A stretch of 64,000 bases of DNA from an uncultured virus (IMG/VR IMGVR_UViG_3300025782_000006) (Duplodnaviria > Heunggongvirae > Uroviricota > Caudoviricetes): the IMG/VR virus record IMGVR_UViG_3300025782_000006, one strand, 5' to 3'. The notes beneath the pieces are model-generated. The model was not told where the DNA came from. It saw only the letters and a list, made by a program, of their open reading frames with translations, and ran no database searches. Shown in pieces: positions 34,767 to 49,755 of this stretch; positions within the stretch are counted from its first letter, which is position 1; each line of letters starts with the position of its first letter. Both the position numbers and the translations under genes were made by a program.

Positions 34767-34791
34767 ATAATACTATATTTAATACTAATAA

Positions 34792-35032: not shown

Positions 35033-35042
35033 TTATTAATTC

Positions 35043-35129
35043 TGGCGGAGAGTATAGGAGTCGAACCTATCCACCCATTGCTGGATGACGCCTTAGCAGG
35101 GCGTTGCCTTACCGCTCGGCCAACTCTCC
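35043..35129 (-). tRNA. tRNA-Ser(GCT)
   Basis: ACGCC-CTGCTAA-GGCGT; long variable arm; CCA. Confidence 0.92.
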
Positions 35130-35137
35130 CAAAACTT

Positions 35138-35335: not shown

Positions 35336-35343
35336 TCCTGTTC

Positions 35344-36423
35344 CTAATTTAAAAAATATCTCGTTAATATGTCTTGCGTAACACTAAAACTTTCATTGAT
35401 TATAACATCTTTGTCTATGTCTTGCAAGATATCTATCAAATGTTTGTAAGCTGAATTAGCCACTTTTTGAAACTGCTGTCGATTGTGTTCGCTGGGCTTT
35501 GGTTTACCACAGGTCTTTAAACTCTCCACTAGTCGATCTGCACGTTCTAGAGGATACTCTATAAGATCGTAAGACTCATCTATCACTTGACCAAATGTTT
35601 CAAATCCTAAACCTTGTAGTTTACGTAGACTATGCTGACCGCCGTATACCACAAATGGGTGTCCTAACATCAAACTCTTATAAGTCTTTTCTGTAGGGAA
35701 CCATTCATTCTGTGTTGTTTCGCTTACAATGCTTATCTCAGTATTGTAGTAGTGACTGGGATAGTAAGCATAGAAACGGAAATCTGGGTGTACAAAGGGA
35801 TCTGGCCAATCATCATCAGGACCAAATCCATCTGCACTTTTACCTGACCTATGACTCCATATGCTAGAGTCTAGTAATCCAGCCGCTTTAAATAAATCAA
35901 AAAAACGTTCTCTATTGTTACGGAACTCTCCGTTGAAGAATAGAAACTTATGTGTTTTTGTTACTGTATCAATACGTTTACACGTATATTCTAAACGAGC
36001 ACGATTAAACTCGTTGTTGATGATCCACGCAAAGAACTCCGGCATGTTATAGTTCTTTACGTAACCATCTATATCCCAATCGCCGCACTTGATTAAATGA
36101 CCGTTAATGTTCTTTGCCTGTAATGCTTCAGCAGTAGGACAAAAACTTGCCGATAGTGTTGCGTAGCTTTCGCTAGGGTAATAAAATATAATATCATTGT
36201 TTCGTCCCGCGGCTTTCTCAAGGATACTGGAGGCAATAGCATTTCCAGGATCACCACAGGGGGTTTCCATAAGGAAACAGTCTGTAATAATGGTTCCACC
36301 ATCAGGTACTGCATCTACGTTGCATTCAACGTAGTCCACCCCGTACAGGTCTAGCGTAGCACGTAATAGATCAGCTTGCTTTTCTGCTGGACGTTTAAGT
36401 GGGTGTAAGATTAAGTATAACAT
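35344..36423 (-). CDS. Hypothetical protein, 'TEKT' family (possible GT-B glycosyltransferase)
   Basis: IVSET...FPTEKTYK...HPFVVYG...GFETF...DESYD; start moved to ATG 36423 because the upstream extension lies in a tRNA. Confidence 0.6.
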   Translation of the reverse strand: MLYLILHPLKRPAEKQADLLRATLDLYGVDYVECNVDAVPDGGTIITDCFLMETPCGDPGNAIASSILEKAAGRNNDIIFYYPSESYATLSASFCPTAEALQAKNINGHLIKCGDWDIDGYVKNYNMPEFFAWIINNEFNRARLEYTCKRIDTVTKTHKFLFFNGEFRNNRERFFDLFKAAGLLDSSIWSHRSGKSADGFGPDDDWPDPFVHPDFRFYAYYPSHYYNTEISIVSETTQNEWFPTEKTYKSLMLGHPFVVYGGQHSLRKLQGLGFETFGQVIDESYDLIEYPLERADRLVESLKTCGKPKPSEHNRQQFQKVANSAYKHLIDILQDIDKDVIINESFSVTQDILTRYFLN

Positions 36424-36426
36424 GTT

Positions 36427-36500
36427 TGGTTGCGGGTTCTGGAATCGCACCAGAGACTAGGGCTTATGAGACCCTCGAGATACTCCTTCTCCAACCCGCG
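36427..36500 (-). tRNA. tRNA-Met(CAT), initiator-like
   Basis: C1:A72 mismatch; AGGGT-CTCATAA-GCCCT; atypical T-loop TGCGATT. Confidence 0.8.
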
Positions 36501-36508
36501 ATAGTTTT

Positions 36509-36727
36509 TTATTTTACTTTTGCTAGATAATCTGTCATGTTCAGATTACCCGACTGTGCTTCTAATAATGCATCTACTGCGGTTACAAATCCATTGTTTT
36601 CTTTAGCACGTACTTTAAGTTCTCTTGTACGTTGTGCCGCGGCAATAACCAAATCAAAACGACCTTGCCCAGTTTTTTCAACGCACTTTTCAACATCTAC
36701 CTGTGATGCACGAGTTTCTTTTTTCAT
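36509..36727 (-). CDS. rpoZ: RNA polymerase omega subunit homologue
   Basis: VEKCVEKTGQGRFDLVIAAAQRTREL...DALLEAQSG resembles the omega pattern [20 protein letters not shown]...ALREIEEG. Confidence 0.75.
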   Translation of the reverse strand: MKKETRASQVDVEKCVEKTGQGRFDLVIAAAQRTRELKVRAKENNGFVTAVDALLEAQSGNLNMTDYLAKVK

Positions 36728-36750
36728 TGTAGCCTTATGGTTAAGTTATT

Positions 36751-36836
36751 TGGTGCGACTGGCCAGAATCGAACTGGCACTCCATTATAGAATCAGATTT
36801 TAAGTCTGACGTGTCTACCGATTTCACCACAGTCGC
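36751..36836 (-). tRNA. tRNA-Leu(TAA)
   Basis: TCAGA-CTTAAAA-TCTGA; long variable arm; CCA. Confidence 0.92.
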
Positions 36837-36861
36837 AGTAGTATACTATTATAGAGGTTTT

Positions 36862-37368
36862 TTAAGACTTTGTCAAATATTTTAAGATTCTATCTGGACC
36901 TAATGCAAAGTATTGCCGTTTTGGTTTGCAATAGTTCTTAAATGAAAAATTTTTATCTAACGGATTACTATATACCTTTACAATTTCATTGTTTTCAAAT
37001 AGTGCAACGTATTGCCAGAGTCGAGTTAACTCGTCAAGATCTCGATCAGTTCCAACGTAATTTTTTATTCGTAGTGTAAATTGACTGTCACTATCAACTA
37101 TTGGGATTAGGTCCGGTCCGTGGATATCAACATATGGAATTAGGAACGCAGTATTGCTTACCGCACAAACATGATCTACTCCCGAGTCTTTTAACTCCGA
37201 GTGTGCTGATTGATATCTTTTAATTTGATCCCAAGAATTGATGTTTGCTGGCAGTGGCAAACTAAAAACCACTGTGCGACAGCCCGTAAAAAGATCTGCA
37301 TAATCATTACAATTATGCAGTCCTTTAAGTTTTTTAGTATTTAGATTTTCTTGAAAATCAACAGCCAT
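36862..37368 (-). CDS. Degenerate peroxiredoxin/redoxin-fold protein
   Basis: DLFTGCRTVVFSLP, SGVDHVCAVS, DSDSQFT; the PGAFTPTC active-site motif is absent. Confidence 0.55.
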   Translation of the reverse strand: MAVDFQENLNTKKLKGLHNCNDYADLFTGCRTVVFSLPLPANINSWDQIKRYQSAHSELKDSGVDHVCAVSNTAFLIPYVDIHGPDLIPIVDSDSQFTLRIKNYVGTDRDLDELTRLWQYVALFENNEIVKVYSNPLDKNFSFKNYCKPKRQYFALGPDRILKYLTKS

Positions 37369-37372
37369 TGAA

Positions 37373-38377
37373 TTACGATTTAATAATACCGTCCAATAGT
37401 CCTGCTTGGAAGAACGTTTGATACTTATCGTATAATGGCTTAGTTAGTTCTTTATACTGTGCTGTTTCTTCTTCAGTTAATTCACGGTATGTAACACCGA
37501 TATCATCGTGATTATCTTTAGCAGCAAATTCTTCAGAATCATTAACTGACCATTGACGTTCAAGTTTGCTTGCGTATAAACTTGCTTCTGTAAATGCCTG
37601 TTGATCAACGGCGTCCAAAGACTCCCAGAAACTCTTGCTAATAATAATACTTGTTAAGAACAAATTATGTTTTGTATTAATAAGATGTTTTTTGTTTGTG
37701 CCTTGGAACTGTGCTAGATAACGTGGAATTGTTGTTTCTAATAAGTTGGCATTAAACCCTTCTTCAGCCACTTTCTTGGCCCAATCTCTAATAGAGAATG
37801 ATTCAGGTTTACTACCCAATGCTTGTACAGTATCTACTGTTACTGGATTAGTACCAATAGCATAAACTAATCCTTTCATGTCCTCTAAACTATTAATAGG
37901 AGTTTCAGAAGCCACACAGCGGAAACCACCAGAGTAAGTAAATGCCATGCCCTTAGCCGGACTATTTTCTTCTACTGAATCTAACAGGCCTTTACCAATT
38001 GGTCCTTCAAACACACGAGTTGCATGATCATGATCACGGAATAAGAATGGCATCTCAAGTACCCAAAAATCTGGATTACACCACATAGCTAATTCATTGA
38101 TATGAACTTGACTAATTTCAATGTTTCCTTGTTCCATTTCAACGATTGGGCCGTTGTCTCGGTAAAAGTTACCCATATTGCCTTTGTACTGTTCATGCTC
38201 TTTTGCCACTTGGTCAAAGTAATGTGTTGGGGTAAAAATTTCAATTTCGTATTTTCCATCAGTTAATTCAGCAATTTTAGCACTAAACGCTTCGGCTGTA
38301 CGCAGGAATAGTTTCACAGGCTCGTGTGCGATTAACCAACGGATTTTTCTTGTTTGACTCATTTGGGGATTCTCCAC
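37373..38377 (-). CDS. TRAP transporter DctP-like solute-binding protein
   Basis: LEMPFLFRDHDHA, YSGGFR, PINSLEDMKG, FWESLD; no signal peptide. Confidence 0.8.
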   Translation of the reverse strand: MENPQMSQTRKIRWLIAHEPVKLFLRTAEAFSAKIAELTDGKYEIEIFTPTHYFDQVAKEHEQYKGNMGNFYRDNGPIVEMEQGNIEISQVHINELAMWCNPDFWVLEMPFLFRDHDHATRVFEGPIGKGLLDSVEENSPAKGMAFTYSGGFRCVASETPINSLEDMKGLVYAIGTNPVTVDTVQALGSKPESFSIRDWAKKVAEEGFNANLLETTIPRYLAQFQGTNKKHLINTKHNLFLTSIIISKSFWESLDAVDQQAFTEASLYASKLERQWSVNDSEEFAAKDNHDDIGVTYRELTEEETAQYKELTKPLYDKYQTFFQAGLLDGIIKS

Positions 38378-38448
38378 TTTCGTAGTAAGATTATATAGTA
38401 TTATTTATGTCAATAAACAACTTTCAATCAAAACTCAACAATAAATAG

Positions 38449-39756
38449 TTGTATCTTAGTAGTAATCAATCAATGTCAAATAAAATAGAACATACTTCCG
38501 CTGGCGGAATCCGCTTTGAACCAAATAAAAAATTAGGTTATTACATTGTTAATAATGAAATTTATTACAATAAAAATCAGGCCATGCTAGCTGGATCTAA
38601 ATATCCAATTGATGTTGGCGGGTTAAACAATGATCCGGTACGTTGGATGTTCAATGAAGATACTTTTTTAAAGTTTCCCTGGCACATAGAACCTCAAGTT
38701 CCCCTCAACGAACTATACCGTATTCGTGCTCAACAGCTTAGAGACCAGTACGATTACATACGCTTAGAACTCAGTGGTGGAGCTGATAGCACGACCGTAG
38801 CCTATGCATTTTTATTAAATGGTATACACTTAGACGAAGTTGTGTTTCGTTATCCTAAGTCCGGTTCTAAGAATTTTTCAGGTGATCCGTGGGATACCGA
38901 AAGTCGAAATCATCTAAGCGAATGGGAATTTGCGGCCCGACCCTTGTTAGAATGGATTGCCACTAATTATCCTAAAGTTAAAATAACTGTACACGATTTT
39001 GTTGACGAGATTGTTAAAGAACAGGCCAACGACGAAAACTGGATTTATAAAACACGGCATTACATACATCCTGGTCATGTACACAAACACACTATAGATA
39101 AAACCTTAGCAGATACTGGTAAACGTATTGGTGTAGTCTACGGTATTGATAAGCCTAAGATCTGTGTCAAAGATGGTAAGTTTTTTATATACTTTGTAGA
39201 TACACAGGCCAGTAACAATCATCCCGAAGTGGGTGATTATACTAATATTACCAACGAATTTTTCTACTGGTCTCCTGATGCTTGCGAACTGTTGGCCAAA
39301 CAGGCACATGTGATTAAGACCTGGTTTAGTATGCCAGCACATCATAATATGAGTCATGTTTTGCAATGGCCCAATCAAGATTACAGCACGCGGACCTTTC
39401 GAGAACAAATACTTAAACCTATCATTTATCCTGATTACGATTTTAGTACATTCCAAACTGCTAAAAGTACTACATCACTCTACGCAGAAATGGATAGTTG
39501 GTTTTTTACTAATTTTCGAGATACCGATTTATATGCAACCTGGACAGCAGGCATAGATTATTTAGAAAAAAATCTCAATGAAAGATATTTTAAGTCTTTT
39601 CAAAATACAATTATGGATATTAAACAGTACCAATCGCCATTTTATTACATTGGTGATAGTACTATTAAAAATTCTAAACCGTTTCAGCCCACAAAACAAC
39701 AGATACAGCAATCTCGGCACATACATTATATACGTGGTCGTTTAGAAATATATTAA
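38449..39756 (+). CDS. PP-loop (adenine-nucleotide alpha hydrolase-like) protein
   Basis: LSGGADS motif; paralogue of 46419..47552. Confidence 0.6.
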   Translation: MYLSSNQSMSNKIEHTSAGGIRFEPNKKLGYYIVNNEIYYNKNQAMLAGSKYPIDVGGLNNDPVRWMFNEDTFLKFPWHIEPQVPLNELYRIRAQQLRDQYDYIRLELSGGADSTTVAYAFLLNGIHLDEVVFRYPKSGSKNFSGDPWDTESRNHLSEWEFAARPLLEWIATNYPKVKITVHDFVDEIVKEQANDENWIYKTRHYIHPGHVHKHTIDKTLADTGKRIGVVYGIDKPKICVKDGKFFIYFVDTQASNNHPEVGDYTNITNEFFYWSPDACELLAKQAHVIKTWFSMPAHHNMSHVLQWPNQDYSTRTFREQILKPIIYPDYDFSTFQTAKSTTSLYAEMDSWFFTNFRDTDLYATWTAGIDYLEKNLNERYFKSFQNTIMDIKQYQSPFYYIGDSTIKNSKPFQPTKQQIQQSRHIHYIRGRLEIY

Positions 39757-39758
39757 TT

Positions 39759-39848
39759 TGGCGGAAGCGGTGAGATTCGAACTCACGGACCTTTTACAGT
39801 CGACAGTTTTCAAGACTGTTGCAATCAACCGGGCTCTGCCACGCTTCC
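39759..39848 (-). tRNA. tRNA-Ser(TGA)
   Basis: ACAGT-CTTGAAA-ACTGT; long variable arm; CCA. Confidence 0.92.
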
Positions 39849-39854
39849 ATTGTT

Positions 39855-39936
39855 TGGTACCCCAGACGGGACTCGAACCCGCACAGTACTGTCTCTTGAA
39901 CAGTTGCGTCTACCTAGTATTTTGCGCCACTGGGGT
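39855..39936 (-). tRNA. Atypical tRNA, Leu-like (anticodon AAG or offset CAA)
   Basis: Acceptor ACCCCAG/CTGGGGT; T-arm; Leu-type GGTAGACGC; loop TCAAGAG; short variable loop. Confidence 0.65.
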
Positions 39937-39938
39937 GT

Positions 39939-40013
39939 TGGTGGTAATAGTTAGATTCGAACTAACGACCTGCGCCGTATGAAGGCGATGCACTACCGCT
40001 GTGCTATATTACC
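39939..40013 (-). tRNA. tRNA-Met(CAT)
   Basis: CGCC-TTCATAC-GGCG; CCA. Confidence 0.85.
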
Positions 40014-40027
40014 ATATTGAAACACAC

Positions 40028-40219
40028 TTAATAAATGTACTTTAATATGGTAGGACCGGTCAGACTTGAACTGACAACCTCGAAGTTAAAAGCCTCTTGC
40101 TCTGCCTTTGAGCTACGATCCCTCTGTTTCGTTAGCTTACGTAGAGCTTTATTGCTCTTGCGGTGCGAGCCCGCCTTCCGTTTACTAGCTAGTACAGCAT
40201 AAATGTTTCTTTGTTTCAT
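40028..40219 (-). CDS. Small basic protein whose frame reads through tRNA-Lys
   Basis: Strong RBS AAGGAG; MKQRNIYAVLASKRKAGSHRKSNKALR. Confidence 0.5.
   Translation of the reverse strand: MKQRNIYAVLASKRKAGSHRKSNKALRKLTKQRDRSSKAEQEAFNFEVVSSSLTGPTILKYIY
40048..40122 (-). tRNA. tRNA-Lys(TTT)
   Basis: Loop CTTTTAA; CCA. Confidence 0.88.
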
Positions 40220-40239
40220 TTTACTTCTCCTTTTTAAAT

Positions 40240-40314
40240 TGGTCCGGCGTAGAGGAATCGAACCTCTATTGAGAGATTAGAAGTCTCCAGTATTATCCAT
40301 TATACTAACGCCAG
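40240..40314 (-). tRNA. tRNA-Arg(TCT)
   Basis: GGAGA-CTTCTAA-TCTCT; CCA. Confidence 0.9.
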
Positions 40315-40315
40315 G

Positions 40316-40391
40316 TGGGGTAACTGATGGGATTCGAACCCACGACAACTGGAATCACAATCCAGGATTCTACCGCTGAACTACAGTTACC
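40316..40391 (-). tRNA. tRNA-His(GTG)
   Basis: CTGGA-TTGTGAT-TCCAG; G-1 and C73. Confidence 0.92.
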
Positions 40392-40397
40392 ATTGTT

Positions 40398-40473
40398 TGG
40401 TGCCTCCTCCTGGTTTCGCGCCAGGCTATCCAGCTCTTCAGACTGGCGCTTTCACTAGATTAGCTTAAGAGGC
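40398..40473 (-). tRNA. tRNA-Phe(GAA)
   Basis: CCAGT-CTGAAGA-GCTGG; atypical T-loop CGCGAAA. Confidence 0.85.
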
Positions 40474-40475
40474 AT

Positions 40476-40549
40476 TGGTAGAGGTACAAGGACTCGAACC
40501 TTGAATGACGGAATCAAAATCCGTAGTGTTGCCATTACACCATACCTCA
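40476..40549 (-). tRNA. tRNA-Gln(TTG)
   Basis: ACGGA-TTTTGAT-TCCGT; CCA. Confidence 0.9.
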
Positions 40550-40560
40550 ATTGTAGAATT

Positions 40561-40968
40561 TTAATTCCTCTGCCATTTAATTCTATTCCAGATTCTTTCA
40601 TGTACTATGTTTAAGCTAGTATTTACAACCAGCTGTATCGTAGCAAAACTTCCCGATGTAGTTAAGTTACCAGTAAAATAATAAGTAATTCCTGTGGCAG
40701 TGGCAAACATAATTATTCGCCATACTATAGTTTTAACTATTGTTCTTGCGTGACTTTCGTGTAAGTCACTAATACCCCAGTTGACTCTAAGCCATGCTCT
40801 TTCATGTAGGGCATATAAAATAGTATTAATAATCAATTGACTCAATGCTATCGAACCAGATATAACAAAATTTTTAGTCAGCAAGTATGCAGTTATAACA
40901 CCGACAAGTGTTGTATAAGTGCGCCAAGTTATTGTTTTGACTAACGTACGGGTTGGGTATTCAATCAT
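40561..40968 (-). CDS. Tandem DUF2061-like membrane protein
   Basis: Two copies of RT.VKTI.WR...HER.W....W. Confidence 0.8.
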   Translation of the reverse strand: MIEYPTRTLVKTITWRTYTTLVGVITAYLLTKNFVISGSIALSQLIINTILYALHERAWLRVNWGISDLHESHARTIVKTIVWRIIMFATATGITYYFTGNLTTSGSFATIQLVVNTSLNIVHERIWNRIKWQRN

Positions 40969-40992
40969 ACTGATTCTTTCTTTAAGTTATTA

Positions 40993-41069
40993 TGGTCGGA
41001 GTGGCAAGATTTGAACTCGCGACATCTGCGTCCCAAACGCAGCGGTCTACCGGGCTGACCTACACTCCG
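40993..41069 (-). tRNA. tRNA-Pro(TGG)
   Basis: CTGCG-TTTGGGA-CGCAG; CCA. Confidence 0.92.
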
Positions 41070-41074
41070 ATGTA

Positions 41075-41148
41075 TGGTGGAGGATGAGAGAATCGAACTC
41101 TCAATCTCGGCTTGCAAAGCCGATGTTATCCCATTTAACTAATCCCCC
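41075..41148 (-). tRNA. tRNA-Ala(TGC)
   Basis: TCGGC-TTTGCAA-GCCGA; G3:U70. Confidence 0.92.
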
Positions 41149-41152
41149 AATT

Positions 41153-41228
41153 TGGTACAAGGTAAAGGGATCGAACCTTTGACCTACGGCTTGTAAGGCC
41201 GCCGCTCTACCAGCTGAGCTAACCTTGC
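41153..41228 (-). tRNA. tRNA-Val(TAC)
   Basis: GCGGC-CTTACAA-GCCGT. Confidence 0.92.
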
Positions 41229-41238
41229 ATAATTCATT

Positions 41239-41315
41239 TGGCCGGCCCTGACGGATTCGAACCGCCAACCGCTAGTTTCGAAGACTAGAACTCTAATCCA
41301 TTGAGCTAAGGGCCG
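41239..41315 (-). tRNA. tRNA-Arg(TCG)
   Basis: CTAGT-CTTCGAA-ACTAG. Confidence 0.9.
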
Positions 41316-41318
41316 ATT

Positions 41319-41396
41319 TGGAGCAACGGGTAGGATTTGAACCTACGGCTTTCAGGATTTGCAGTCCCGTGCATTGGGCCACTCTGCCACCGTTGC
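41319..41396 (-). tRNA. tRNA-Cys(GCA)
   Basis: CGGGA-CTGCAAA-TCCTG; U73. Confidence 0.92.
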
Positions 41397-41402
41397 ATTG
41401 TT

Positions 41403-41479
41403 TGGTGCCTCGACCAAGACTCGAACTTGGGACCCCCGCGTTATCAACACGGTGCTCTAACCAACTGAGCTATCGAGGC
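41403..41479 (-). tRNA. tRNA-Ile(GAT)
   Basis: CCGTG-TTGATAA-CGCGG. Confidence 0.92.
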
Positions 41480-41483
41480 TGAT

Positions 41484-41645
41484 TGGTGCCGGTTGATTGG
41501 CTCAAGCCGGCAAAGCCTGTTACATTGCAGGACCGTTGCCGTTCCTGAATCCCACTACACCACCTTCGGCCTGTCTGACGCTGTTCTATCCTGCCAGAAG
41601 AAGTCTCCAAAGTGGTTGAGTTTGGATGACGCTGTTAGATGGTGA
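41484..41645 (-). ncRNA. Candidate ncRNA ending in a CCA minihelix
   Basis: 3' end GCCGGCTTGA-GCCAA-TCAACCGGC-ACCA; GC-rich, ORF-free; spaced like a tRNA gene; 5' boundary uncertain. Confidence 0.4.
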
Positions 41646-42020
41646 TTATTTTGAACTGAGTTGCTCGATGCGAGCGATTGATTCGGGTGTTGCTTCTTCA
41701 TCGAGTCCTTCTTGCCGCTGGGTATCAAATGCTATTTTCCAGGTTTTAGGATCAGGATTGGTAGCACTCATGTTTCCTTGATGATTACGATTGTATTCAG
41801 CCATTGCTTGTTCGGCATTCATATCAGTCAACACTCTTGCGTAGAACCAGGCCTGATGCCAAGTAAACGGATCAATCCATTTGTTTTCACTTTTTGCTTG
41901 TGCTAACGCTGGTTCTAACCGAGGGTCGTGCGGCAATGTTCTGTCTTTCTTAAAGCGGTCAAAGATACCCTCGTGGATCTTGCCATCTACTAAGTCAATG
42001 TATTCTCTAAGTGTTTTCAT
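41646..42020 (-). CDS. Hypothetical protein (possible head-internal protein)
   Basis: MKTLREYIDLV...EGIFD; C-terminal LDEEATPESIARIEQL. Confidence 0.55.
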   Translation of the reverse strand: MKTLREYIDLVDGKIHEGIFDRFKKDRTLPHDPRLEPALAQAKSENKWIDPFTWHQAWFYARVLTDMNAEQAMAEYNRNHQGNMSATNPDPKTWKIAFDTQRQEGLDEEATPESIARIEQLSSK

Positions 42021-42161
42021 AATAATATTTAGTTTAACATAAGATATTCTATTTGTCAAGTCCTAAAAAGTGCGTGTGTCCGTGGATAGATGATAAATAA
42101 AAGTGTAGTTCGCGGTGGTGGAACACCCAACTACTCTAACGCAACAAAGGAGCGATCAGCA

Positions 42162-42911
42162 ATGATATTTACTACTATTCCGTTTACCTACCTAATAAGA
42201 TGGTCTAAACACGACATTAACTATTATGGTGTCCGTTATGCCCGCGGCTGTAAACCCGAAGACTTATGGACTCGATACTTTACTTCTTCCGACCGTATCC
42301 AAGAATGCCGCGAACTTTACGGCGAGCCCGATATTATCGAAGTCCGTAAAACATTTAAGCATCACGATATTGCCCGTGCCTGGGAACATAGGGTTCTAAC
42401 ACGAATCAACGCTGTCCAAAAACCTAACTGGTTAAACGAACACGCTGGCGGCAAAAAAGGATTCCGCATCAAATACGGAGCCGAACATCAAAACTATGGT
42501 AAGCGTTGGACATTTACCGAAGAGCAACGCCAACACCAAGTAGATACTCATAAAAATCTACGCTGGTGGAACAACGGCACGGAACAAGCATTTAGCGAAG
42601 TTCCTCCCGGCCCAGATTACAAACGAGGACGACTGCCATTTAATAACCGCGGAGCCAAAATAGGAGCCAAGGTCAATAGTCAAAAATACTGGATTACCGA
42701 CGGCACTAACGAAGAGATGATCTTTAAGACCGACCTTATCCCTGCTGGATATGCTCCAGGAAGAATAGAGTCAGTATTAAAAGGTAAAACAAATCACGCT
42801 CGCGGAACGCACTGGTGGACCGACGGAACTACAACTAAAATGTCCGAAGATTGCCCTGGCCCAGAATGGCGTCGCGGCCGAACTACATGGCCGGCCCATT
42901 CCCATTCCTAA
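42162..42911 (+). CDS. Seg-like (GIY-YIG-related) homing endonuclease with W(W/I)xxGT repeats
   Basis: FTYLIRW...YYGVR...YFTSS...WEHRVL...WLN; three repeats ending in ..G(Y/W)..GR. Confidence 0.75.
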   Translation: MIFTTIPFTYLIRWSKHDINYYGVRYARGCKPEDLWTRYFTSSDRIQECRELYGEPDIIEVRKTFKHHDIARAWEHRVLTRINAVQKPNWLNEHAGGKKGFRIKYGAEHQNYGKRWTFTEEQRQHQVDTHKNLRWWNNGTEQAFSEVPPGPDYKRGRLPFNNRGAKIGAKVNSQKYWITDGTNEEMIFKTDLIPAGYAPGRIESVLKGKTNHARGTHWWTDGTTTKMSEDCPGPEWRRGRTTWPAHSHS

Positions 42912-43470
42912 ACCCAATCGTTCCTCCCTCATCTTTAATCCTCTTTAATACATCTTCGAAGAGGATCGGAGCGAAGTCTGGTGTCTGCTCTACGCATACG
43001 CAATGATAGCGAACATCGATTACATCTGTGCGTCCGCTTGTTGCTAATGGTCGCATAACACGATTAGCATGGAGGTGGCCATGGACATTCGTGCCAAATC
43101 TTCCAAGACTTTCTGGATGGACTGGAATGTGCGACAGGATAAGTCCATTCATGACATGATATCCTCGTAAACTTCTAAAGTAAGGCGTATAGTCCTCATC
43201 TTTAAAGATATCGTGATTACCGCGGATAAGAACTTTGTCACCGTTAAGTCTATTCAAGATAGGTAGTGCCCTGCGATTGATAACCACATCACCTAGGTGA
43301 TAAACTTTATCATTTGGTCGAACTCGTTCGTTCCATGCTCGAACCATGGCTTCATCCATCTCTGCGGCATCATCCCAGGGACGAAGCGGTGTAACACCAT
43401 CGTTGCGAGTGAAGCGACATACACCTGCGTGTCCAAAATGCGTGTCTGATACTAAAAATACTGCTGGCAT
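42883..43470 (-). CDS. Calcineurin-like metallophosphoesterase
   Basis: SDTHFGH, HLGDV, RGNHD, SHIP, HGHLH. Confidence 0.92.
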   Translation of the reverse strand: MPAVFLVSDTHFGHAGVCRFTRNDGVTPLRPWDDAAEMDEAMVRAWNERVRPNDKVYHLGDVVINRRALPILNRLNGDKVLIRGNHDIFKDEDYTPYFRSLRGYHVMNGLILSHIPVHPESLGRFGTNVHGHLHANRVMRPLATSGRTDVIDVRYHCVCVEQTPDFAPILFEDVLKRIKDEGGTIGFRNGNGPAM

Positions 43471-43484
43471 ACTCGCCTCCTTTC

Positions 43485-43943
43485 TTATTTAAAATTACGC
43501 CAATCGTCAATGTTGGGCTTTTCATTTTCATCATAAGTCCAACCCAACGCCTTCATCATACGGTGCTTTACTAAAAGATTAGGGCTACGAAAACGTTCTG
43601 TATCATCAAAGCCCATCATAACTCCAACTTCACAAACTGCACCGCTACGACAAATACCTGCAAAACAATGTACAACTACGTTCATACGATTGTCTAACGC
43701 ATGTTGTAATAGAGCCACAAGTCGTGCCGCATCTTCATGACTACACTTCATTGCTTCATCTAAAACTTCGTCCTTTTCTTCTACATCTAAAAATTCAAAG
43801 TTATGTATTTCTTTGAATTTGTGTACAGGAGTAGGACGCCAACTTGCTGGATCAACAATACTGATCAGCATACTATTCTCGCCAGCATCATGATGAAACT
43901 TTGTTGAAACATCACTAGCCGCTACATTTTCAATCCACGGCAT
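43485..43943 (-). CDS. Protein-tyrosine/dual-specificity phosphatase-like protein
   Basis: VHCFAGICRS (CX5R); start reset to ATG 43943 (GGAGG RBS) because the longer ORF overlaps tRNA-Asn. Confidence 0.8.
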   Translation of the reverse strand: MPWIENVAASDVSTKFHHDAGENSMLISIVDPASWRPTPVHKFKEIHNFEFLDVEEKDEVLDEAMKCSHEDAARLVALLQHALDNRMNVVVHCFAGICRSGAVCEVGVMMGFDDTERFRSPNLLVKHRMMKALGWTYDENEKPNIDDWRNFK

Positions 43944-43963
43944 AATGCCTCCTTTTTTTGTTT

Positions 43964-44039
43964 TGGCTCCCCGAGCTGGGCTCGAACCAGCGACACCGTG
44001 ATTAACAGTCACGTGCTCTACCAACTGAGCTATCAGGGA
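43964..44039 (-). tRNA. tRNA-Asn(GTT)
   Basis: CGTGA-CTGTTAA-TCACG. Confidence 0.92.
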
Positions 44040-44046
44040 ATTGTAT

Positions 44047-44122
44047 TGGCGCTCTGTACGAGATTCGAACTCGTGTACCCGCCGTGAAAGGGCGGTGTCC
44101 TAGGCCTCTAGACGAACAGAGC
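44047..44122 (-). tRNA. tRNA-Glu(TTC)
   Basis: CCGCC-CTTTCAC-GGCGG. Confidence 0.92.
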
Positions 44123-44126
44123 AAAT

Positions 44127-44201
44127 TGGCGGTCCCAACCGGAATCGAACCGGTCTCTCCTCAGTGACAGTGAGGAATACTAACCGATATACTATAGGAC
44201 C
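44127..44201 (-). tRNA. tRNA-Asp(GTC)
   Basis: CCTCA-CTGTCAC-TGAGG. Confidence 0.92.
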
Positions 44202-44626
44202 AATTTACTACCTTTAGGCATACGACCAGTGCGTATAGCATTACCCAACTTTGCCGCGGCCTTTAATCTTTTTCTACCTTCCTCACTAACATTTTTTACA
44301 CCCCAAGTATCTGTTTGGGAATGACAGTTAGGACAAAGATATCTTAAATTCTCAACTACATTGTTAGTATTGTTGCCATCAATGTGATCAATCTGCAAAC
44401 TTAAAGGTTTTCCTTTATGAGTTCCGTTATTATCACATTCAACACACTTATATTCTGTATTTTTCTTAAAATACGTATAAGCATTTGCTCTTGTATATAC
44501 ACCACTCTCTATTTTTTCATTTAGAGAATGTTTTTTTTGGCAAGCAATACTACAATATTTTCCAGATTTTTGTGATGGCATCCATCTAAAATCATTTTTA
44601 CAGCATAAACAGGTTGCAATAGGCAT
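44192..44626 (-). CDS. HNH endonuclease
   Basis: LQIDHIDGNNTNN..ENLRYLCPNCHSQT; stop codon lies inside the 5' end of tRNA-Asp. Confidence 0.9.
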   Translation of the reverse strand: MPIATCLCCKNDFRWMPSQKSGKYCSIACQKKHSLNEKIESGVYTRANAYTYFKKNTEYKCVECDNNGTHKGKPLSLQIDHIDGNNTNNVVENLRYLCPNCHSQTDTWGVKNVSEEGRKRLKAAAKLGNAIRTGRMPKGSKLVL

Positions 44627-44679
44627 AGGTTAGTTCTCCTTATATCTATTTATCATTCTAACCTGTTATTTATAATTTA

Positions 44680-44746
44680 TGGGAACCTGTTGCCTAGGGC
44701 GTTTTTAGTGCCTAGGTCCGCGGTTGCCTTCCGGACTTGATTCCCA
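44680..44746 (-). ncRNA. Candidate small three-way-junction RNA
   Basis: TGGGAA/TTCCCA closing stem with GTCCG/CGGAC and CCTAGG/CCTAGG hairpins. Confidence 0.4.
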
Positions 44747-44827
44747 CTTACTTCTCAGCAGATCGAGAATGCTCGACGCGGCTAGTGCTTACACACTATT
44801 CAATACAGTCGCCACTGTAACCGAGTT

Positions 44828-44924
44828 TGGTGGACGCTCTTGGAGTTGAACCAAGACGGCTTGACTAAGTAGTCAATTATGAAGCCTTAACAGGTCTTAC
44901 CGTAAGCCAATTTTAACAACGCCC
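44828..44924 (-). ncRNA. tRNA-like RNA with Ala identity (mini-tmRNA-like)
   Basis: Acceptor GGGCGTT/AGCGTCC-A-CCA with G3:U70; T-arm CTTGG-TTCAACT-CCAAG; no canonical D or anticodon arm. Confidence 0.65.
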
Positions 44925-44947
44925 GTAAACAAAATGGTAATAACTTA

Positions 44948-45060
44948 CCATACAACTAAACACTCGGAGGTATCGGAGAGCAAATACATTGACCTCTCAG
45001 CAACTCAACGGAATTTTAATTTGCTCTTACCGTTTGTTGTTGGAATGTTTATGTGTATGG
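44948..45060 (-). ncRNA. Candidate kissing-loop RNA
   Basis: Long closing stem; two internal hairpins whose loops carry complementary AGAGCAAAT/ATTTGCTCT. Confidence 0.55.
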
Positions 45061-45187
45061 TGTCTTATCGTCTTTTTCATGCCCGCTATCGTCAATAGCA
45101 CACGCATTTCATATATTGTCAGACTCAAGCGATTCTGTTTGGGGTACATGTTGACTAGACATAACCTCCCTCCCGATCTACTCTCAA

Positions 45188-45279
45188 ACCATATTGAAAC
45201 ACACTACCTACGCACCATACGGCGTAGCCCACCCGTGGAACCTTTGATCAACTCCGGCCTAAGTATGCTTCAATATAGT
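45188..45279. repeat. Stem element sharing an 18-nt repeat with 40011-40028
   Basis: ACCATATTGAAACACACT at 45188 and 40011, each with an imperfect downstream complement. Confidence 0.65.
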
Positions 45280-45342
45280 AACCCCTCCCGGGGTGCTAAT
45301 ATTCTACTTAAATTGTTAATGAACTTTAACTACTAAAACAAT

Positions 45343-45371
45343 AGTATAGCATTTTGGCAATTAAAGGACAA
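45343..45371 (-). promoter_or_regulatory. Sigma70-type promoter with conserved spacer
   Basis: TTGTCC-TTTAATTGCCAAAATGC-TATACT. Confidence 0.65.
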
Positions 45372-45383
45372 CCATAATAAACA

Positions 45384-45457
45384 TGGAGCGGGATAAGGGA
45401 ATCGAACCCTCGTTCTCAGCTTGGAAGGCTGGAGTAATACCATTATACGAATCCCGC
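45384..45457 (-). tRNA. tRNA-Gly(TCC)
   Basis: CCAGC-CTTCCAA-GCTGA; U73. Confidence 0.92.
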
Positions 45458-45463
45458 ATTGTT

Positions 45464-45537
45464 TGGCGACCCTCCAGGGAATCGAACCCCGATCTGCGGT
45501 TTTGGAGACCGATGTAATGCCATTATACCAGAGAGTC
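45464..45537 (-). tRNA. tRNA-Trp(CCA)
   Basis: CGGT-CTCCAAA-ACCG. Confidence 0.92.
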
Positions 45538-45542
45538 ATACG

Positions 45543-45618
45543 TGGAGCGGGAAAGGAGGTTCGAACTCCCGACCTATACCTTGGCAAGGTATCGCTCTAC
45601 CAGCTGAGCTATTCCCGC
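45543..45618 (-). tRNA. tRNA-Gly(GCC)
   Basis: ATACC-TTGCCAA-GGTAT. Confidence 0.93.
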
Positions 45619-45627
45619 TTTGAAACT

Positions 45628-45711
45628 TGGTGGAGCATCCTGGGATCGAACCAGGCATGTCAAAGACGGCGGATTTACAGTCCACTGCATCACCGTTGAT
45701 GCTTCTGCTCC
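45628..45711 (-). tRNA. tRNA-Tyr(GTA)
   Basis: GTGGA-CTGTAAA-TCCGC; long variable arm. Confidence 0.92.
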
Positions 45712-46010
45712 TGTGTATTGTAAAGTATACTAGTCTATATGCCCCGTGTCAAGTGGGGTGGTAACCCGAATGGACGTTTACCCGCTCGTCATCTAGTATA
45801 CTTTAGAATACCCTCTCTTTCGAAAGGATATGCTAGGGCTATACCCCAGCCTGTAATTTTTTACACCACACAAGGTGCTCCATCCCACAGTCCGCCCATT
45901 TAGCTGTTTATAGTGTAGCAAGGATCTCGTTCCCTATACCACTTTACTGCCGATCAAAGATAGTCTGGCCAAAAAACGTACCAGTCATCTTCATAACCTC
46001 AATCCACTTA

Positions 46011-46181
46011 TCAGCGTGAGGAGTATTTCGACCCCCTTGCAGACTCCTGTAACTTCGCGGCTTCTGCTAATGCTTTGACTTGAGCTTCTGCTCTTGCTAC
46101 CTTTGCTTCCATTAGTGCAACTTTTTCTTCGTGTGAGAGGACAAAGTGTGATACGTTTCGTTTTTCGTTCTTATGTTCCAT
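46011..46181 (-). CDS. Small coiled-coil-like protein (56 aa), first gene after the attenuator
   Basis: Manual translation MEHKNEKRNVSHFVLSHEEKVALMEAKVARAEAQVKALAEAAKLQESARGSKYSSR; RBS AGGAGAAGGA. Confidence 0.65.
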   Translation of the reverse strand: MEHKNEKRNVSHFVLSHEEKVALMEAKVARAEAQVKALAEAAKLQESARGSKYSSR

Positions 46182-46193
46182 TTTCCTTCTCCT

Positions 46194-46232
46194 AAAAATA
46201 AAAAACCCCGGAGTGTTTAATTCCAGGGCTTT
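46194..46232 (-). terminator. Intrinsic terminator of the putative attenuator
   Basis: GCCCTGGA-ATTAAACAC-TCCGGGGT followed by TTTTTATTTTT. Confidence 0.8.
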
Positions 46233-46275
46233 AATTAAAATATGGTGTAAAAATATATACTCTAATTAAAACCCT
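46225..46275 (-). promoter_or_regulatory. Antiterminator hairpin
   Basis: AGGGTTTTAATTAGAGTAT pairs with ATATTTTAATTAAAGCCCT (19 contiguous pairs including 3 G:U) and sequesters the terminator 5' arm. Confidence 0.75.
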
Positions 46276-46384
46276 CAACGTAATCGCGTTCGCTATTAAT
46301 CATTGGGCATACTGCTGACCAATAGGCTAACCCGCCTAATGTTGGCTGTAATTTTGCGGAATGATTAAAAGTGTTCGTTCTCAT
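46262..46384 (-). CDS. Putative attenuator leader peptide containing all 20 amino acids
   Basis: MRTNTFNHSAKLQPTLGGLAYWSAVCPMINSERDYVEGFN-TAG; last codons and stop form the antiterminator 5' arm. Confidence 0.7.
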   Translation of the reverse strand: MRTNTFNHSAKLQPTLGGLAYWSAVCPMINSERDYVEGFN

Positions 46385-46393
46385 AATTTAAGT

Positions 46394-46422
46394 ATTATAG
46401 TTTATTTATCTTTTTATGTCAA
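46394..46422 (-). promoter_or_regulatory. Perfect-consensus sigma70 promoter
   Basis: TTGACA-17 nt-TATAAT, 9 nt before the leader ATG. Confidence 0.85.
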
Positions 46423-47552
46423 CCAATATAGATATCTTTTTTGTTAAATTTGCCCAAACAGTAGAGTCTAGTGTTTAAAGGGCTTAGCCCTACCATTACC
46501 CCATGTTTGTAGTCTAACAAGCTTCGATCAACCGACGTTAAACTTTGTTTAATATGCCAGCGCCAGCCGTCGAAGAATCTTCTATTGTAGCGTACAACCC
46601 AGAAGTCAACTTCTTGCATGATCGAACCCGAAAACTTATCTGTTTGAAAAGTGTGTATGTTATACTCCGGGTAACAAACTCGAATATATGTATCACGAGG
46701 AACGCTATGACCCCTAGTTATTTCTTGAGTTATCAAAGCCATTTCATCTGCGTTGGCTGTTGTTTCGTAGTAGTGCTTTAGTTCGTGTGCTTGGGCTATA
46801 GCAAGCTCGGGCATCTGTGGAGACCAAAAGAAAGCTTCGCTAATACGTTCTGGATCAGGATCTGCAGGTCCAATTCTATCAACAAAGTACGAATAAAAAT
46901 TACCGTCTTTGATGTGGCACATAGTTTTTTCAAAACCATAGATGACGCCTACAGATTTTCCTTGCCTTACTGCTTCACACTCCCATTCACTTTTTCTACT
47001 GTATCTAAAAAAGGATCCCATGCTTAGATAGTGTCCGCCCTTTTTTAACTTTTCTTCGTTAAAATCATGTTCGTATTCTTCAGAATAATCATCAATACAA
47101 ATACGTGTATTGGGAAATCTTTTGGCAACGTCTTCTAAGACCGGTAGTACTGCATAGTCGTACTCACTGCTGTGATTTATATTGCTAAAATCAGTTGGGT
47201 TAGCCGGAGTATATTTTTTCTGTGCTAAAGGCCAACGTGTGTATACTTCATCTACATGAATGCCATTTGATAAAAAACTATAAAGAGTAGTCCAGGAATC
47301 ACTGCCGCCACTAAAGTTTATCACAATATAATCGTAGGTGTCTCGAAGTTGCTGTGCTCTTAATTTATATAATTCTTGCAAAGTTCCTGCGGGACGTTTA
47401 GTCCAATTACAGGTAGAAAATACTTCATCATAAAAATTAAAAACTACGGGATTACCAGTCTTAGATGCAAATTGAAGTGCTTCAAGTTTGTTGGTATAGA
47501 CTGTGCCACCTACCTCGTAATGACCATAGTTATTATTGTTTTGGATTATCAT
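46419..47552 (-). CDS. PP-loop protein, paralogue of 38449..39756
   Basis: ELYKLRAQQLRDTYDYIVINFSGGSDS; start reset to 47552 because the longer ORF overlaps tRNA-Leu. Confidence 0.6.
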   Translation of the reverse strand: MIIQNNNNYGHYEVGGTVYTNKLEALQFASKTGNPVVFNFYDEVFSTCNWTKRPAGTLQELYKLRAQQLRDTYDYIVINFSGGSDSWTTLYSFLSNGIHVDEVYTRWPLAQKKYTPANPTDFSNINHSSEYDYAVLPVLEDVAKRFPNTRICIDDYSEEYEHDFNEEKLKKGGHYLSMGSFFRYSRKSEWECEAVRQGKSVGVIYGFEKTMCHIKDGNFYSYFVDRIGPADPDPERISEAFFWSPQMPELAIAQAHELKHYYETTANADEMALITQEITRGHSVPRDTYIRVCYPEYNIHTFQTDKFSGSIMQEVDFWVVRYNRRFFDGWRWHIKQSLTSVDRSLLDYKHGVMVGLSPLNTRLYCLGKFNKKDIYIG

Positions 47553-47570
47553 GAGAAGAGTTTCTAAATT

Positions 47571-47655
47571 TGGTGCCCCAAGCGAGACTCGAACTCGCAC
47601 ACCTTACGATACTGGCTTCTAAGACCAGCGTGTCTACCAATTCCACCATCGGGGC
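47571..47655 (-). tRNA. tRNA-Leu(TAG)
   Basis: CTGGT-CTTAGAA-GCCAG; long variable arm. Confidence 0.92.
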
Positions 47656-47679
47656 AATACTTTACTTATACTACAAATT

Positions 47680-47767
47680 TGGTGGGCCGGGAGGGACTTG
47701 AACCCACAATGAGCTTTCGCTGGTCGATTATGAGTCGACTGCCTGCAACCAATACGGCGTCCGGCCC
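47680..47767 (-). tRNA. tRNA(CAT), Ile2-like, with long variable arm
   Basis: GGGCC acceptor; GTCGA-CTCATAA-TCGAC; extra arm AGC-GAAA-GCT. Confidence 0.75.
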
Positions 47768-47804
47768 AACTAAGCAACTATTATATACTATTTGCGATTA
47801 AAGG

Positions 47805-48986
47805 TCAACGACGTTGACGTACCGGCTCTTTTGTCGAAGATCTGCGTGCTCTTGGTGCAGTTGCGTTGGCTTTTGCAGGTTGATCACCAGTTTGATTTAG
47901 GCCTCCGCGAAGAAGATTACCATTTTTATCAACTAGTACAACATCCTTGGTACCACGTGTACCAAGGGCACGTTTTAGTGTCAGTGCCTGTGGACGTAAG
48001 CCACGATATCCAATAGCTTTACCAGGACGGCTTGCACTATTACCAATGCGCCAAACCATTAAATGGCTTTCTGGAATATCAGCTTTGGTTTTGATAACTG
48101 TGTGGCATTCAACAGTAATATTCTTACCTTCTTGCTTAAAGTGGTGTGGTTTAAAATCTTGAATAACAATACCACCTTCAGGATTAATGTCTGTACCAAA
48201 GATAGCTCGCATAGATTCTTCTTCAGTTGGTTCTACTACAATCTCTTTGTTGAGTCTGTAGTATTCACGTCCAAGATCATCTGTCAACTTGTCTAATTTT
48301 ATAGCACCTTGAGATAATAGATCGTCAATAATCTTTCTAGCTTTAGCTCCAAAGGAACCTTCAGCACTTTCCCAACTGGCGGCACTTAATTCTTTGATGC
48401 TGATTGGTAAATTTTTTGTTTTACTGCGTAGTACAACGTCAGCTTTTTTAATACCGCCGGTAGCATGTCTTCCAGGAGTTCCTCCAGTTGACTCGACTTC
48501 TACAGCATCATGAATAGTAATGCTTTTGCCGCGAGTATCAACAAAGGTTACATTTATTGAGCCGTATTTTTCAATCATACTGGCCATCATTGCGTCCAAG
48601 ACAAATTCATTTTCTTTACCAGCAGATTTATCTGCTTGCTGACCCACGTCTTTGACAGAAATATTAACAGGACTGTTGTCAAAAATAATGACGCCAGCAG
48701 AGCTAATATTTGGAATATTTGCGATACGTGGGTTAGCTTTTGGTGCAACTTTTTTTAGGATCTGTAGAATATTTGCCAAGATACTTTGACGATACTTGTT
48801 TTTTAATTGACCATCGGGTATTTGAACTAGTGGCTGTAGTTTGTTACCATTTACTTTTACGTTATCGTAGCCGGCCTTTTTTAATAACTCAAGAACGCCT
48901 GTACGATCAATTAGGGGTTGGACAGATGGTTTTGCTGGTGCTTTGACAGCTTCGTCAAGGATATTAATTAATTCGCGCATTTTCAT
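47805..48986 (-). CDS. Hypothetical protein, possible PD-(D/E)XK nuclease fold
   Basis: AGKENE...KADVVL...ISIKE; N-terminal MRELINILDEA. Confidence 0.5.
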   Translation of the reverse strand: MKMRELINILDEAVKAPAKPSVQPLIDRTGVLELLKKAGYDNVKVNGNKLQPLVQIPDGQLKNKYRQSILANILQILKKVAPKANPRIANIPNISSAGVIIFDNSPVNISVKDVGQQADKSAGKENEFVLDAMMASMIEKYGSINVTFVDTRGKSITIHDAVEVESTGGTPGRHATGGIKKADVVLRSKTKNLPISIKELSAASWESAEGSFGAKARKIIDDLLSQGAIKLDKLTDDLGREYYRLNKEIVVEPTEEESMRAIFGTDINPEGGIVIQDFKPHHFKQEGKNITVECHTVIKTKADIPESHLMVWRIGNSASRPGKAIGYRGLRPQALTLKRALGTRGTKDVVLVDKNGNLLRGGLNQTGDQPAKANATAPRARRSSTKEPVRQRR

Positions 48987-48996
48987 AATACAGTAT

Positions 48997-49755
48997 TTAG
49001 TCTGTAATTTGATAAAAGTCTTTGTCCAGCCAAGCAACTACTGTATCTTCTAAACGTGCATATCCATACTTAGTTACGCTACTAACAATACTATCATTGA
49101 CTAAATTGCGGTCAATTATGTCGTGCCAACTAGCGTGTTCGGGCAAGGGCTCATGTTCTGTAGCGTATACCGCTGCTTGTAGCCAAGGAGTCCCTGGTTC
49201 ACGATAAAAATACGCATCTCTACAGTCAAATCCGCTGATGGCCAACATATAGATAAGATTCAAAAGGTTATAACTGTAGTATTGGTGACTATGATTACTA
49301 ATGATCATTTGACTGCGTCTATGGTCCCAATAAGTAGTCTGTGGTATAGTTAGCACTAACATACCGTTGACCGTCATAGTTGATTTCCATGTGGCCAGAC
49401 ATTTTAAAGGATTTCGAGCATATTGAAATGAATCATGTGCCCATAATAGATCAACTTGTCTAGGGATAACTCGTTCCTCAAAATTTCCCTCAATTGGGTG
49501 TACATTAGGTAGTGCTAGTATGCTTGGATCAATCTGTTGAATATTTTGATCAACTGCATAAACAATGTAATTGTGGAATTCCGGAGGATCATCTCTAGTT
49601 TGTAGTGTAGCCCACCATTTAGCGTCAAATCCGGCACCGCAACCCATGTCTGCTACTACAGTTAAACTATCTAAATAATCATCATACTTGTAGATTAGAT
49701 CTAAAGTTTTTCGACTGTGCTCGTGACTTTCGTCGGGATTTTTAAACAGGCCCAT
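48997..49755 (-). CDS. Class I SAM methyltransferase
   Basis: VADMGCGAG, VDLLWAHDSFQY, NGMLVLTIP. Confidence 0.8.
   Translation of the reverse strand: MGLFKNPDESHEHSRKTLDLIYKYDDYLDSLTVVADMGCGAGFDAKWWATLQTRDDPPEFHNYIVYAVDQNIQQIDPSILALPNVHPIEGNFEERVIPRQVDLLWAHDSFQYARNPLKCLATWKSTMTVNGMLVLTIPQTTYWDHRRSQMIISNHSHQYYSYNLLNLIYMLAISGFDCRDAYFYREPGTPWLQAAVYATEHEPLPEHASWHDIIDRNLVNDSIVSSVTKYGYARLEDTVVAWLDKDFYQITD

Follow-up and report, generated by a model that had tools for sequence, protein, structure and literature searches.

tRNA arrays are common in large phages and, to our knowledge, their regulation is largely undescribed. The question is raised by a short element on the minus strand (46194..46422) of the 64,000-nt stretch of DNA analysed here, which we call the window and whose source is an uncultured jumbo phage. 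The element has its own promoter, a short open reading frame and a terminator, and it stands at the head of a region rich in tRNA genes. What does this element do? The accessible text of PMC12409363 describes tRNAs as targets of bacterial immune systems and some viruses as carrying their own tRNAs in reply.

We consider it moderately probable that the element is a ribosome-mediated transcription attenuator heading the tRNA region, in which full translation of the leader frame would lead to termination, and slow or absent translation to read-through. We infer from the sequence and its relatives that the frame is translated, where its transcription starts, in which direction the switch works and all that would follow physiologically.

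Layout of the leader element

The element begins with a sigma-70-type promoter (46394..46422, minus strand) that matches the consensus TTGACA-17-TATAAT at 12 of 12 positions, with a 17-nt spacer. Read as 46422..46394, it is the sole 12/12 site within 39000-49000, and promoter-like sites as a class are not enriched in that interval (21 found vs 22.6 in shuffles). The TGA stop of an upstream gene of 393 aa falls within its -35 hexamer. The leader promoter pattern is matched in 42 of the 48 unique copies of the element described below. A motif in the spacer, GATAAATAAA (window 46400-46416), is conserved in the promoters of diverged relatives and could be a phage-specific promoter signature or a binding site.

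The promoter is followed by a leader ORF of 40 codons and a TAG stop (46262..46384, minus strand, ATG at 46384), whose peptide is MRTNTFNHSAKLQPTLGGLAYWSAVCPMINSERDYVEGFN. The start ATG lies 9 nt past the -10 hexamer and has no Shine-Dalgarno sequence in front of it; the distance is 6-10 nt in 39 of 42 copies. The start position reads ATTATG in the window and ATGATG at the homologous site of other clades. The leader mRNA is probably leaderless, or carries a leader of 2-3 nt. All 20 amino acids occur within residues 1-34, with varied synonymous codons (Arg AGA/CGC, Ser TCC/TCA/AGC, Gly GGC/GGG/GGT, Thr ACG/ACT/ACA). The perfect promoter, the near-leaderless 40-codon frame, its complete set of amino acids and its codon choices had all been described in the first-pass annotation, and each of them is confirmed.

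Four of the 48 copies have no adjacent promoter or variant of it, and show a purine-rich (AAGG/GGT) stretch upstream of the ATG, which we read as a putative Shine-Dalgarno sequence. Owing to these promoter-less, purine-rich clades (L082, L094, L100 and L107), the leaderless form is not universal in the family.

The 5′ arm (46257..46274, minus strand) of a predicted antiterminator helix, H1, takes in the last codons of the ORF together with its stop (TAG, 46264..46262). The 3′ arm of H1 (46226..46243, minus strand) ends in CCC (46228..46226), and these three bases are also the first bases of the stem of an intrinsic terminator (46194..46228, minus strand), which consists of the stem CCCUGGA/UCCGGGG (46228..46206) with a 9-nt loop and a U tract (46205..46194). 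A 19-bp hairpin overlapping the terminator had been proposed; the overlap stands through the shared CCC, and the length is corrected to 18 consecutive pairs, three of them G-U, closing a loop of 13 nt. The 199-nt fold of the element has a z of -4.2, and none of 200 shuffles is equally stable.

A smaller hairpin lies inside the ORF (UAGGC-N6-GCCUA, 46323..46338, minus strand), where it covers the codons L-G-x-x-A-Y. It reaches at least 5 bp in 35 of 48 copies and does not pair with the H1 arm. Synonymous sites are fixed there (Leu YTA in 36 of 38, Gly GGC in 40 of 43), the 3′ arm of the hairpin being set by the DNA search pattern itself. That it serves as a polymerase pause or a folding element is only a guess; a his-type pause consensus 3′ of this inner hairpin fits some clades, not the window.

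Under the attenuator hypothesis, a very strong promoter would give an mRNA that starts at, or at most 3 nt from, the start codon of the 40-codon frame. A first ribosome in pace with the RNA polymerase would reach the stop and sit on the 5′ arm of H1. With that arm occupied, the shared CCC would pair with the downstream GGG, the terminator would form about 25-37 nt past the stop and transcription would end. A ribosome that lags, stalls far enough upstream or never starts would let H1 form first and hold the CCC; the terminator stem could then not close beside the U tract, and the polymerase would continue into the small gene and the tRNA block. The predicted outcome is a negative feedback on tRNA supply. 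If leaderless mRNAs, or those with a 3-nt leader, initiate poorly in the host, the switch would be mostly open.

Enterobacterial leader-peptide attenuators include trpL, hisL, leuL, thrL, pheL and the multivalent ilv leaders. Like the trpL/hisL type, the phage element has a short 5′ leader frame, here predicted to be translated, and an antiterminator that shares bases with an intrinsic terminator; the position of the ribosome at the frame end would select the structure, with full translation favouring termination. Unlike that type, the phage leader has no runs of regulatory codons, which are a feature of leader-peptide attenuators. Nearly all amino acids occur one to four times, with per-peptide mean counts from 0.7 (Cys) to 4.7 (Ser) and about six amino acids present exactly once. 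Because nearly every amino acid is found once or a few times and none in runs, the frame would report the overall decoding speed and not the supply of one amino acid.

Three further differences from the trpL/hisL type are that the phage mRNA would be leaderless or nearly so, that the element is located in a phage, and that a small ORF and tRNA genes, not biosynthetic enzymes, lie downstream. No anti-antiterminator (1:2) was seen in the phage element, nor any proven pause site, and inspection by eye found no upstream segment able to pair with the H1 5′ arm in every clade. In the absence of a 1:2 structure, a complete lack of translation would therefore give read-through and not super-attenuation.

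Conservation of the element among relatives

Searches of the phage collection with the region and with the upstream gene (BLASTN and TBLASTN) gave no matches. The nearest record (G001, a fragment of 129 kb with a completeness rating of 35%) shows no match to the region, and two further loci (L001 and L002) are identical copies that carry no comparative information. Relatives were reached through the 393-aa gene, whose 103 homologues led to 79 IMG/VR loci. Diverged leader copies were found 1-3 kb downstream of this gene in a dozen of the 79 loci (local BLAST, nhmmer), and a profile built from 12 peptides retrieved 78 small predicted proteins, 68 of them with E up to 0.001.

A DNA pattern consisting only of GCCTATTGG and a terminator-like palindrome gave 71 IMG/VR matches, which comprised 60 genuine loci and 11 unrelated sequences that were dropped; 48 elements are unique. 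As the search pattern fixes both GCCTATTGG and the terminator, neither is informative within the DNA set. The family thus collected in uncultured jumbo phages comprises 48 unique DNA copies and 121 unique peptides, and the genomes of relatives reach 354-374 kb.

We found that MAFFT alignments of the element (A5 and A6) misregister the arms of H1 because two length classes exist; column-based counts for H1 were therefore dropped, and the helix was anchored on the terminator CCC. An uninterrupted, CCC-anchored helix of at least 6 bp is present in 46 of 48 copies, compared with 2.6% of shuffles, and extends back into the last 3-11 codons of the frame in 46 of 48. In every one of the 48, the 5′ arm begins 9-32 nt upstream of the stop. 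At positions 5 and 6 of the helix the pair is C-G in 28 and 31 copies and U-A in 15 and 15, while positions 7-8 vary further, with covariation. RNAalifold on alignment A6 recovered the terminator only, in which five pairs are changed on both sides among 46 relatives. The expectation that both hairpins covary in related phages is borne out by these substitutions.

The energies of the two states were compared with the CCC forced upstream. The computed energies favour the H1 state over the terminator state in 46 of 48 copies, with a median difference of -3.05 kcal/mol, and in the window the two are almost equal (-0.8 kcal/mol). When the RNA is masked in the computation as by a ribosome at the stop, the full terminator is obtained at the sequence level in 48 of 48 copies. 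From the first base of the stop codon to the start of the terminator, the distance is 25-37 nt. In E. coli, according to the accessible text of PMC4824070, terminator efficiency is about 90% at 28 bp from the stop and below 10% at 5 bp. A spacing of 25-37 nt lies beyond this range of ribosome repression, and a terminating ribosome should therefore block H1, not the terminator.

The family thus shows an ORF end that overlaps the antiterminator, an antiterminator that shares bases with the terminator, and a conserved intrinsic terminator between the leader ORF and the downstream genes, all of them features by which attenuators are recognized. Together with the co-oriented tRNA genes downstream, the attenuator layout proposed in the first-pass annotation holds across the family.

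The frame itself is under constraint. It is free of stops over 40-53 codons in all 48 unique copies, as is expected of a selected open frame, whereas the other two frames hold 204 and 200 stops across the 48 copies and are never open; length differences between copies are whole codons. The median pairwise dN/dS of the leader is 0.64, and its entropy by codon position is flat (1.04/1.14/1.14), compared with the usual coding pattern in the neighbouring small ORF that served as control (1.38/1.10/1.56). Part of the seeming peptide conservation is at the nucleotide level, in fixed synonymous sites. Such a pattern is in keeping with a frame in which the act of translation counts for more than the peptide made.

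These data bear on the best surviving alternative, an ordinary small-protein gene that is expressed at a high level from its own promoter and closed by a composite two-hairpin terminator, in which the peptide would be the product, H1 would do no more than stabilise the 3′ end and the amino-acid diversity would be inherited chance. We regard this alternative as unlikely. The ORF is predicted by gene callers in many contigs and the motifs LG..AYW and SDR are conserved in the peptide, but the nucleotide-level share of this conservation, the dN/dS value and the flat entropy all argue against this reading, as do the missing Shine-Dalgarno sequence and an ATG placed 6-10 nt past the -10 hexamer.

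Nor would a small-protein gene need an H1 that shares the terminator CCC (46 of 48), or a stop that always lies inside H1. Furthermore, in 28 of 40 distinct loci there is no promoter of at least 10/12 between the terminator and the first tRNA, and an ordinary terminator would there cut off the strongest promoter from a tRNA array without a detected promoter. The diversity of the peptide is compatible with chance insofar as one complete 40-mer is expected about once per 100-160 and completeness is not strict (see below). The leader peptide has no family in Pfam, PHROGs, PDB profile or Atlas searches, which also counts against the small-protein gene.

A second alternative is suggested by the conserved residues. 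AYW, which is set by the DNA search pattern and whose codons form the 3′ arm of the intra-ORF RNA hairpin, is nearly invariant; D-R is found in most members, just upstream of H1, and a Pro codon follows in 31 of 48 copies. TnaC and SecM are arrest peptides that stall the ribosome in response to a ligand or factor. By analogy, a core AYW ... DR-T-P-E would stall the ribosome when a particular ligand or factor is present, and it is this signal, not general decoding speed, to which the switch would respond. A pure sampling role does leave the conserved AYW and (S)DR unexplained. However, the window has SERDY and not SDRTPE, and a stall at DRTPE, at most about 4 codons from the H1 arm, is predicted to occlude H1 in part, with no clear outcome. 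Given also the origin of the AYW signal, we find an arrest peptide quite improbable.

A search with the Rfam 15 covariance models across 33000-49000 (E up to 1) returned only tRNA and chance matches, none of them over 46194-46422. A third alternative sees the functional product in the terminated RNA (about 180 nt), which would be a trans-acting small RNA or dual-function RNA with the ORF secondary. It would suit the abundant short RNA that a strong promoter and terminator should yield, the fold far more stable than shuffles, the conserved synonymous sites and the precedent of rnTrpL (accessible text of PMC6614838), but the frame open in 48 of 48 copies with in-frame length changes, the lack of an Rfam match and of a known target make it very unlikely, and this reading would in any case be compatible with attenuation.

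Amino-acid content of the leader peptides

Next to the attenuator layout, the first-pass annotation had assigned the leader a pan-amino-acid role, resting on the presence of all 20 amino acids. At the composition of the window, an iid peptide is complete (20/20) in 0.17% of cases at 34 residues, 0.94% at 40 and 3.7% at 48, and 97 of 15,764 windows of 40 residues from the long ORFs of the window itself are complete (0.62%). A complete 40-codon ORF is unusual for a whole ORF, but it is not extreme on its own.

Among the 121 unique peptides of the family (35-53 aa), 68 contain 20 amino-acid types, 37 contain 19, 14 contain 18 and two contain 17, with a mean of 19.4. Full coverage, which had been expected to persist in relatives despite divergence, is therefore kept in 68 of 121 and lost in 53, each of which lacks at least one amino acid. 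The commonest missing residues are Cys (37 peptides), Val (12), Arg (8) and Phe (5).

We compared the observed 56% of complete peptides with two null models, both of which assume column independence on a short and gap-rich alignment, where slippage would bias the nulls downward. A column-permuted null gave 17.7% complete, with a maximum of 31% in 2000 permutations, and a tree-simulated null gave 16.9% (sd 7.6), with none of 400 simulations reaching the observed value. The excess is spread across Lys, His, Phe, Ile, Glu, Cys and Val. For Cys taken by itself, the over-retention is not significant (69% vs 53% simulated; 55 of 400 simulations reach the observed level). In a matched control, the neighbouring family of 45-60-aa ORFs, none of 30 members is complete and the mean is 15.5 types.

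The completeness is uneven across the family. Of the 16 peptides from the clade to which the window belongs, six are complete and eight have no Arg; a subfamily with 35 codons has 16-18 types. As a family trait, high amino-acid diversity exceeds the tree-aware null without being strict, and the pan-amino-acid reading is only partly supported. Of the pan-amino-acid claim, the diversity survives and the strictness is lost (53 of 121 peptides incomplete, 10 of 16 in the window's clade).

The position of the residues sets a further limit. All 20 types are present at least 4 codons upstream of the H1 arm in only 3 of 48 copies, and the late amino acid, which is Asp in the window but Glu in most relatives, falls within 4 codons of the arm. 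The proposal that stalling at any earlier codon permits read-through would not extend to these late residues.

A match between the amino acids missing from a leader and the tRNAs missing from its phage was apparent in 5-kb flanks and is refuted by whole arrays. The phages with Cys-less leaders G002 and G005 encode tRNA-Cys, and G003, with a Val-less leader, encodes tRNA-Val; G004 has a complete leader, yet ARAGORN finds in it none of the tRNAs for Ile, Lys or Val. The amino acids of a leader thus do not reflect the tRNAs that its phage encodes.

A stricter form of the attenuator hypothesis is that the leader is a true pan-aminoacyl-tRNA sensor. Selection would keep at least one codon for nearly every amino acid in the leaderless frame, so that the pioneer ribosome is held up, and the antiterminator opened, whenever one tRNA species, whichever it is, is lost. 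We hold this form to be possible but doubtful. If it is true, the trigger could be host tRNA-targeting immune nucleases or the decay of the host tRNA pool, and the phage tRNA supply would be homeostatic and self-limiting, a counter-defence circuit of a kind not described for tRNA genes.

Downstream genes and the reach of the leader

The first gene past the terminator is an ORF of 56 aa (46011..46181, minus strand), and it is found as first described, at 46181..46011 with the Shine-Dalgarno sequence AGGAGAAGGA in front (46193..46184). It starts 24 nt past the terminator stem and 12 nt past the U tract. A conserved ORF of 45-60 aa follows the terminator in most loci, with 30 unique members and an invariant K..RA. 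The 56-aa ORF of the window has no Pfam, PHROG or PDB relative.

The first tRNA block follows, with Tyr(GTA), Gly(GCC), Trp(CCA) and Gly(TCC) at 45384..45711 on the minus strand (ARAGORN, Rfam). ARAGORN reports 25 tRNAs in the window. The first-pass annotation had counted 25 co-oriented tRNAs for all 20 amino acids, all downstream of the leader; their common minus strand is correct, the 25 cover 18 amino acids, and two, at 47571-47767, are upstream of the leader. Three more, Phe(GAA), Tyr(GTA) and an odd one, are found only by Rfam or relaxed ARAGORN, and it is the total of 28 tRNA-like genes that covers all 20 amino acids.

Two of these genes form an odd pair on the minus strand (39858-39936 / 44828-44924). 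One has an irregular anticodon loop and is seen by Rfam and relaxed ARAGORN only, with the label Ala|Cys; the second is a 97-nt tRNA-Asn(GTT) with a long extra arm or insertion. In several related phages (L082, L085, L091, L095, L110, L124 and L127, as well as G002 and G003, with loci L153 and L155), the leader is closely preceded by an ARAGORN-called tRNA whose anticodon is CUA (‘Pyl(cta)’, amber-suppressor-like). We saw no link between this tRNA and the leader stop, because those leaders end in TAA.

Across the family, a tRNA lies at most 1500 nt downstream of the leader in 41 of the 43 loci whose sequence extends so far, and the downstream tRNAs of the 60 loci are all (575 of 575) on the strand of the leader. 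The window's clade is an exception to the lack of bypass promoters in most loci. In the window, a second strong promoter, TTGACA-17-TATACT (45724..45752, minus strand), matches at 11 of 12 positions and stands 12 nt before tRNA-Tyr, directly ahead of the first tRNA; the leader is therefore not the sole route into the first block.

Further tRNA blocks in this clade have their own promoters, and the array of the window is interrupted by protein genes, some of them on the plus strand. With the 11/12 promoter at 45752..45724 and a broken array, the claim that the leader gates the whole array was overstated for the window, and the accompanying caveat that internal promoters may drive part of the array is upheld. 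As read from this arrangement, the leader of the window can modulate the small ORF and add to the transcription of the first block, without gating the array as a whole.

Several other features of the region deserve mention. A promoter TTGACA-17-TAAACT with TG (42031-42059, minus strand) is followed 10 nt on by ATTATTATG, which opens an ORF of 122 codons (41653-42020), and near-leaderless starts may be a habit of this phage. The 393-aa protein (46419-47600, minus strand), encoded among tRNA genes and with homologues that are metagenomic, has what we read as an SGGxDS PP-loop motif; it has no Pfam family and only a weak match to PHROG 424 (PAPS reductase), and it may act as an enzyme of tRNA modification or nucleotide activation. 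The GTG start listed for it overlaps tRNA-Leu, and the true start is therefore probably the internal MIIQNNNN.

Inside the tRNA region, a calcineurin-type metallophosphoesterase (PHROG 547) and a dual-specificity/PTP-like phosphatase are encoded on the minus strand (42883-43470 and 43485-44024). Phosphoesterases of the calcineurin type occur in RNA-repair enzymes, and those in the window merit attention for a possible role in tRNA repair. The phage also carries an auxiliary metabolic gene, for a DctP-type TRAP-transporter solute-binding protein (37373-38377, minus strand; Pfam PF03480, E 2e-38).

In the full-text literature, with subscription journals mostly outside the search, we found no description of leader-peptide attenuation of tRNA genes. 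Partial parallels exist. Mycobacterial polycysteine ORFs are likewise leaderless short ORFs that form the first cistron and attenuate downstream genes; unlike the phage leader, they respond to cysteine, are enriched in a single amino acid and belong to a cellular genome, where the genes under their control are cysteine-related (accessible text of bioRxiv 10.1101/834739).

The trn operon of Anabaena sp. PCC 7120 resembles the phage region in being a supernumerary tRNA array that is turned on when translation is impaired, but translational stress induces it through promoter repeats, and the terms ‘leader’, ‘attenuat’ and ‘terminator’ are absent from the accessible text on this operon (PMC8421152). 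The antibiotic-sensing leaders of mef(E)/mel (PMC4335068) and vmlR (PMC9226507), as far as the accessible parts of these sources describe them, share with the phage element a short frame on which stalling opens an antiterminator; they differ in answering to a ribosome with bound drug, in specific peptide contexts, and in having resistance genes under their control.

The element is compact (about 230 nt), is represented by dozens of diverged copies and makes clear mutational predictions. An attenuator that reads decoding speed would give phage tRNA genes a feedback control, and leader-peptide attenuation would then extend from single amino acids to the state of the whole translation system.
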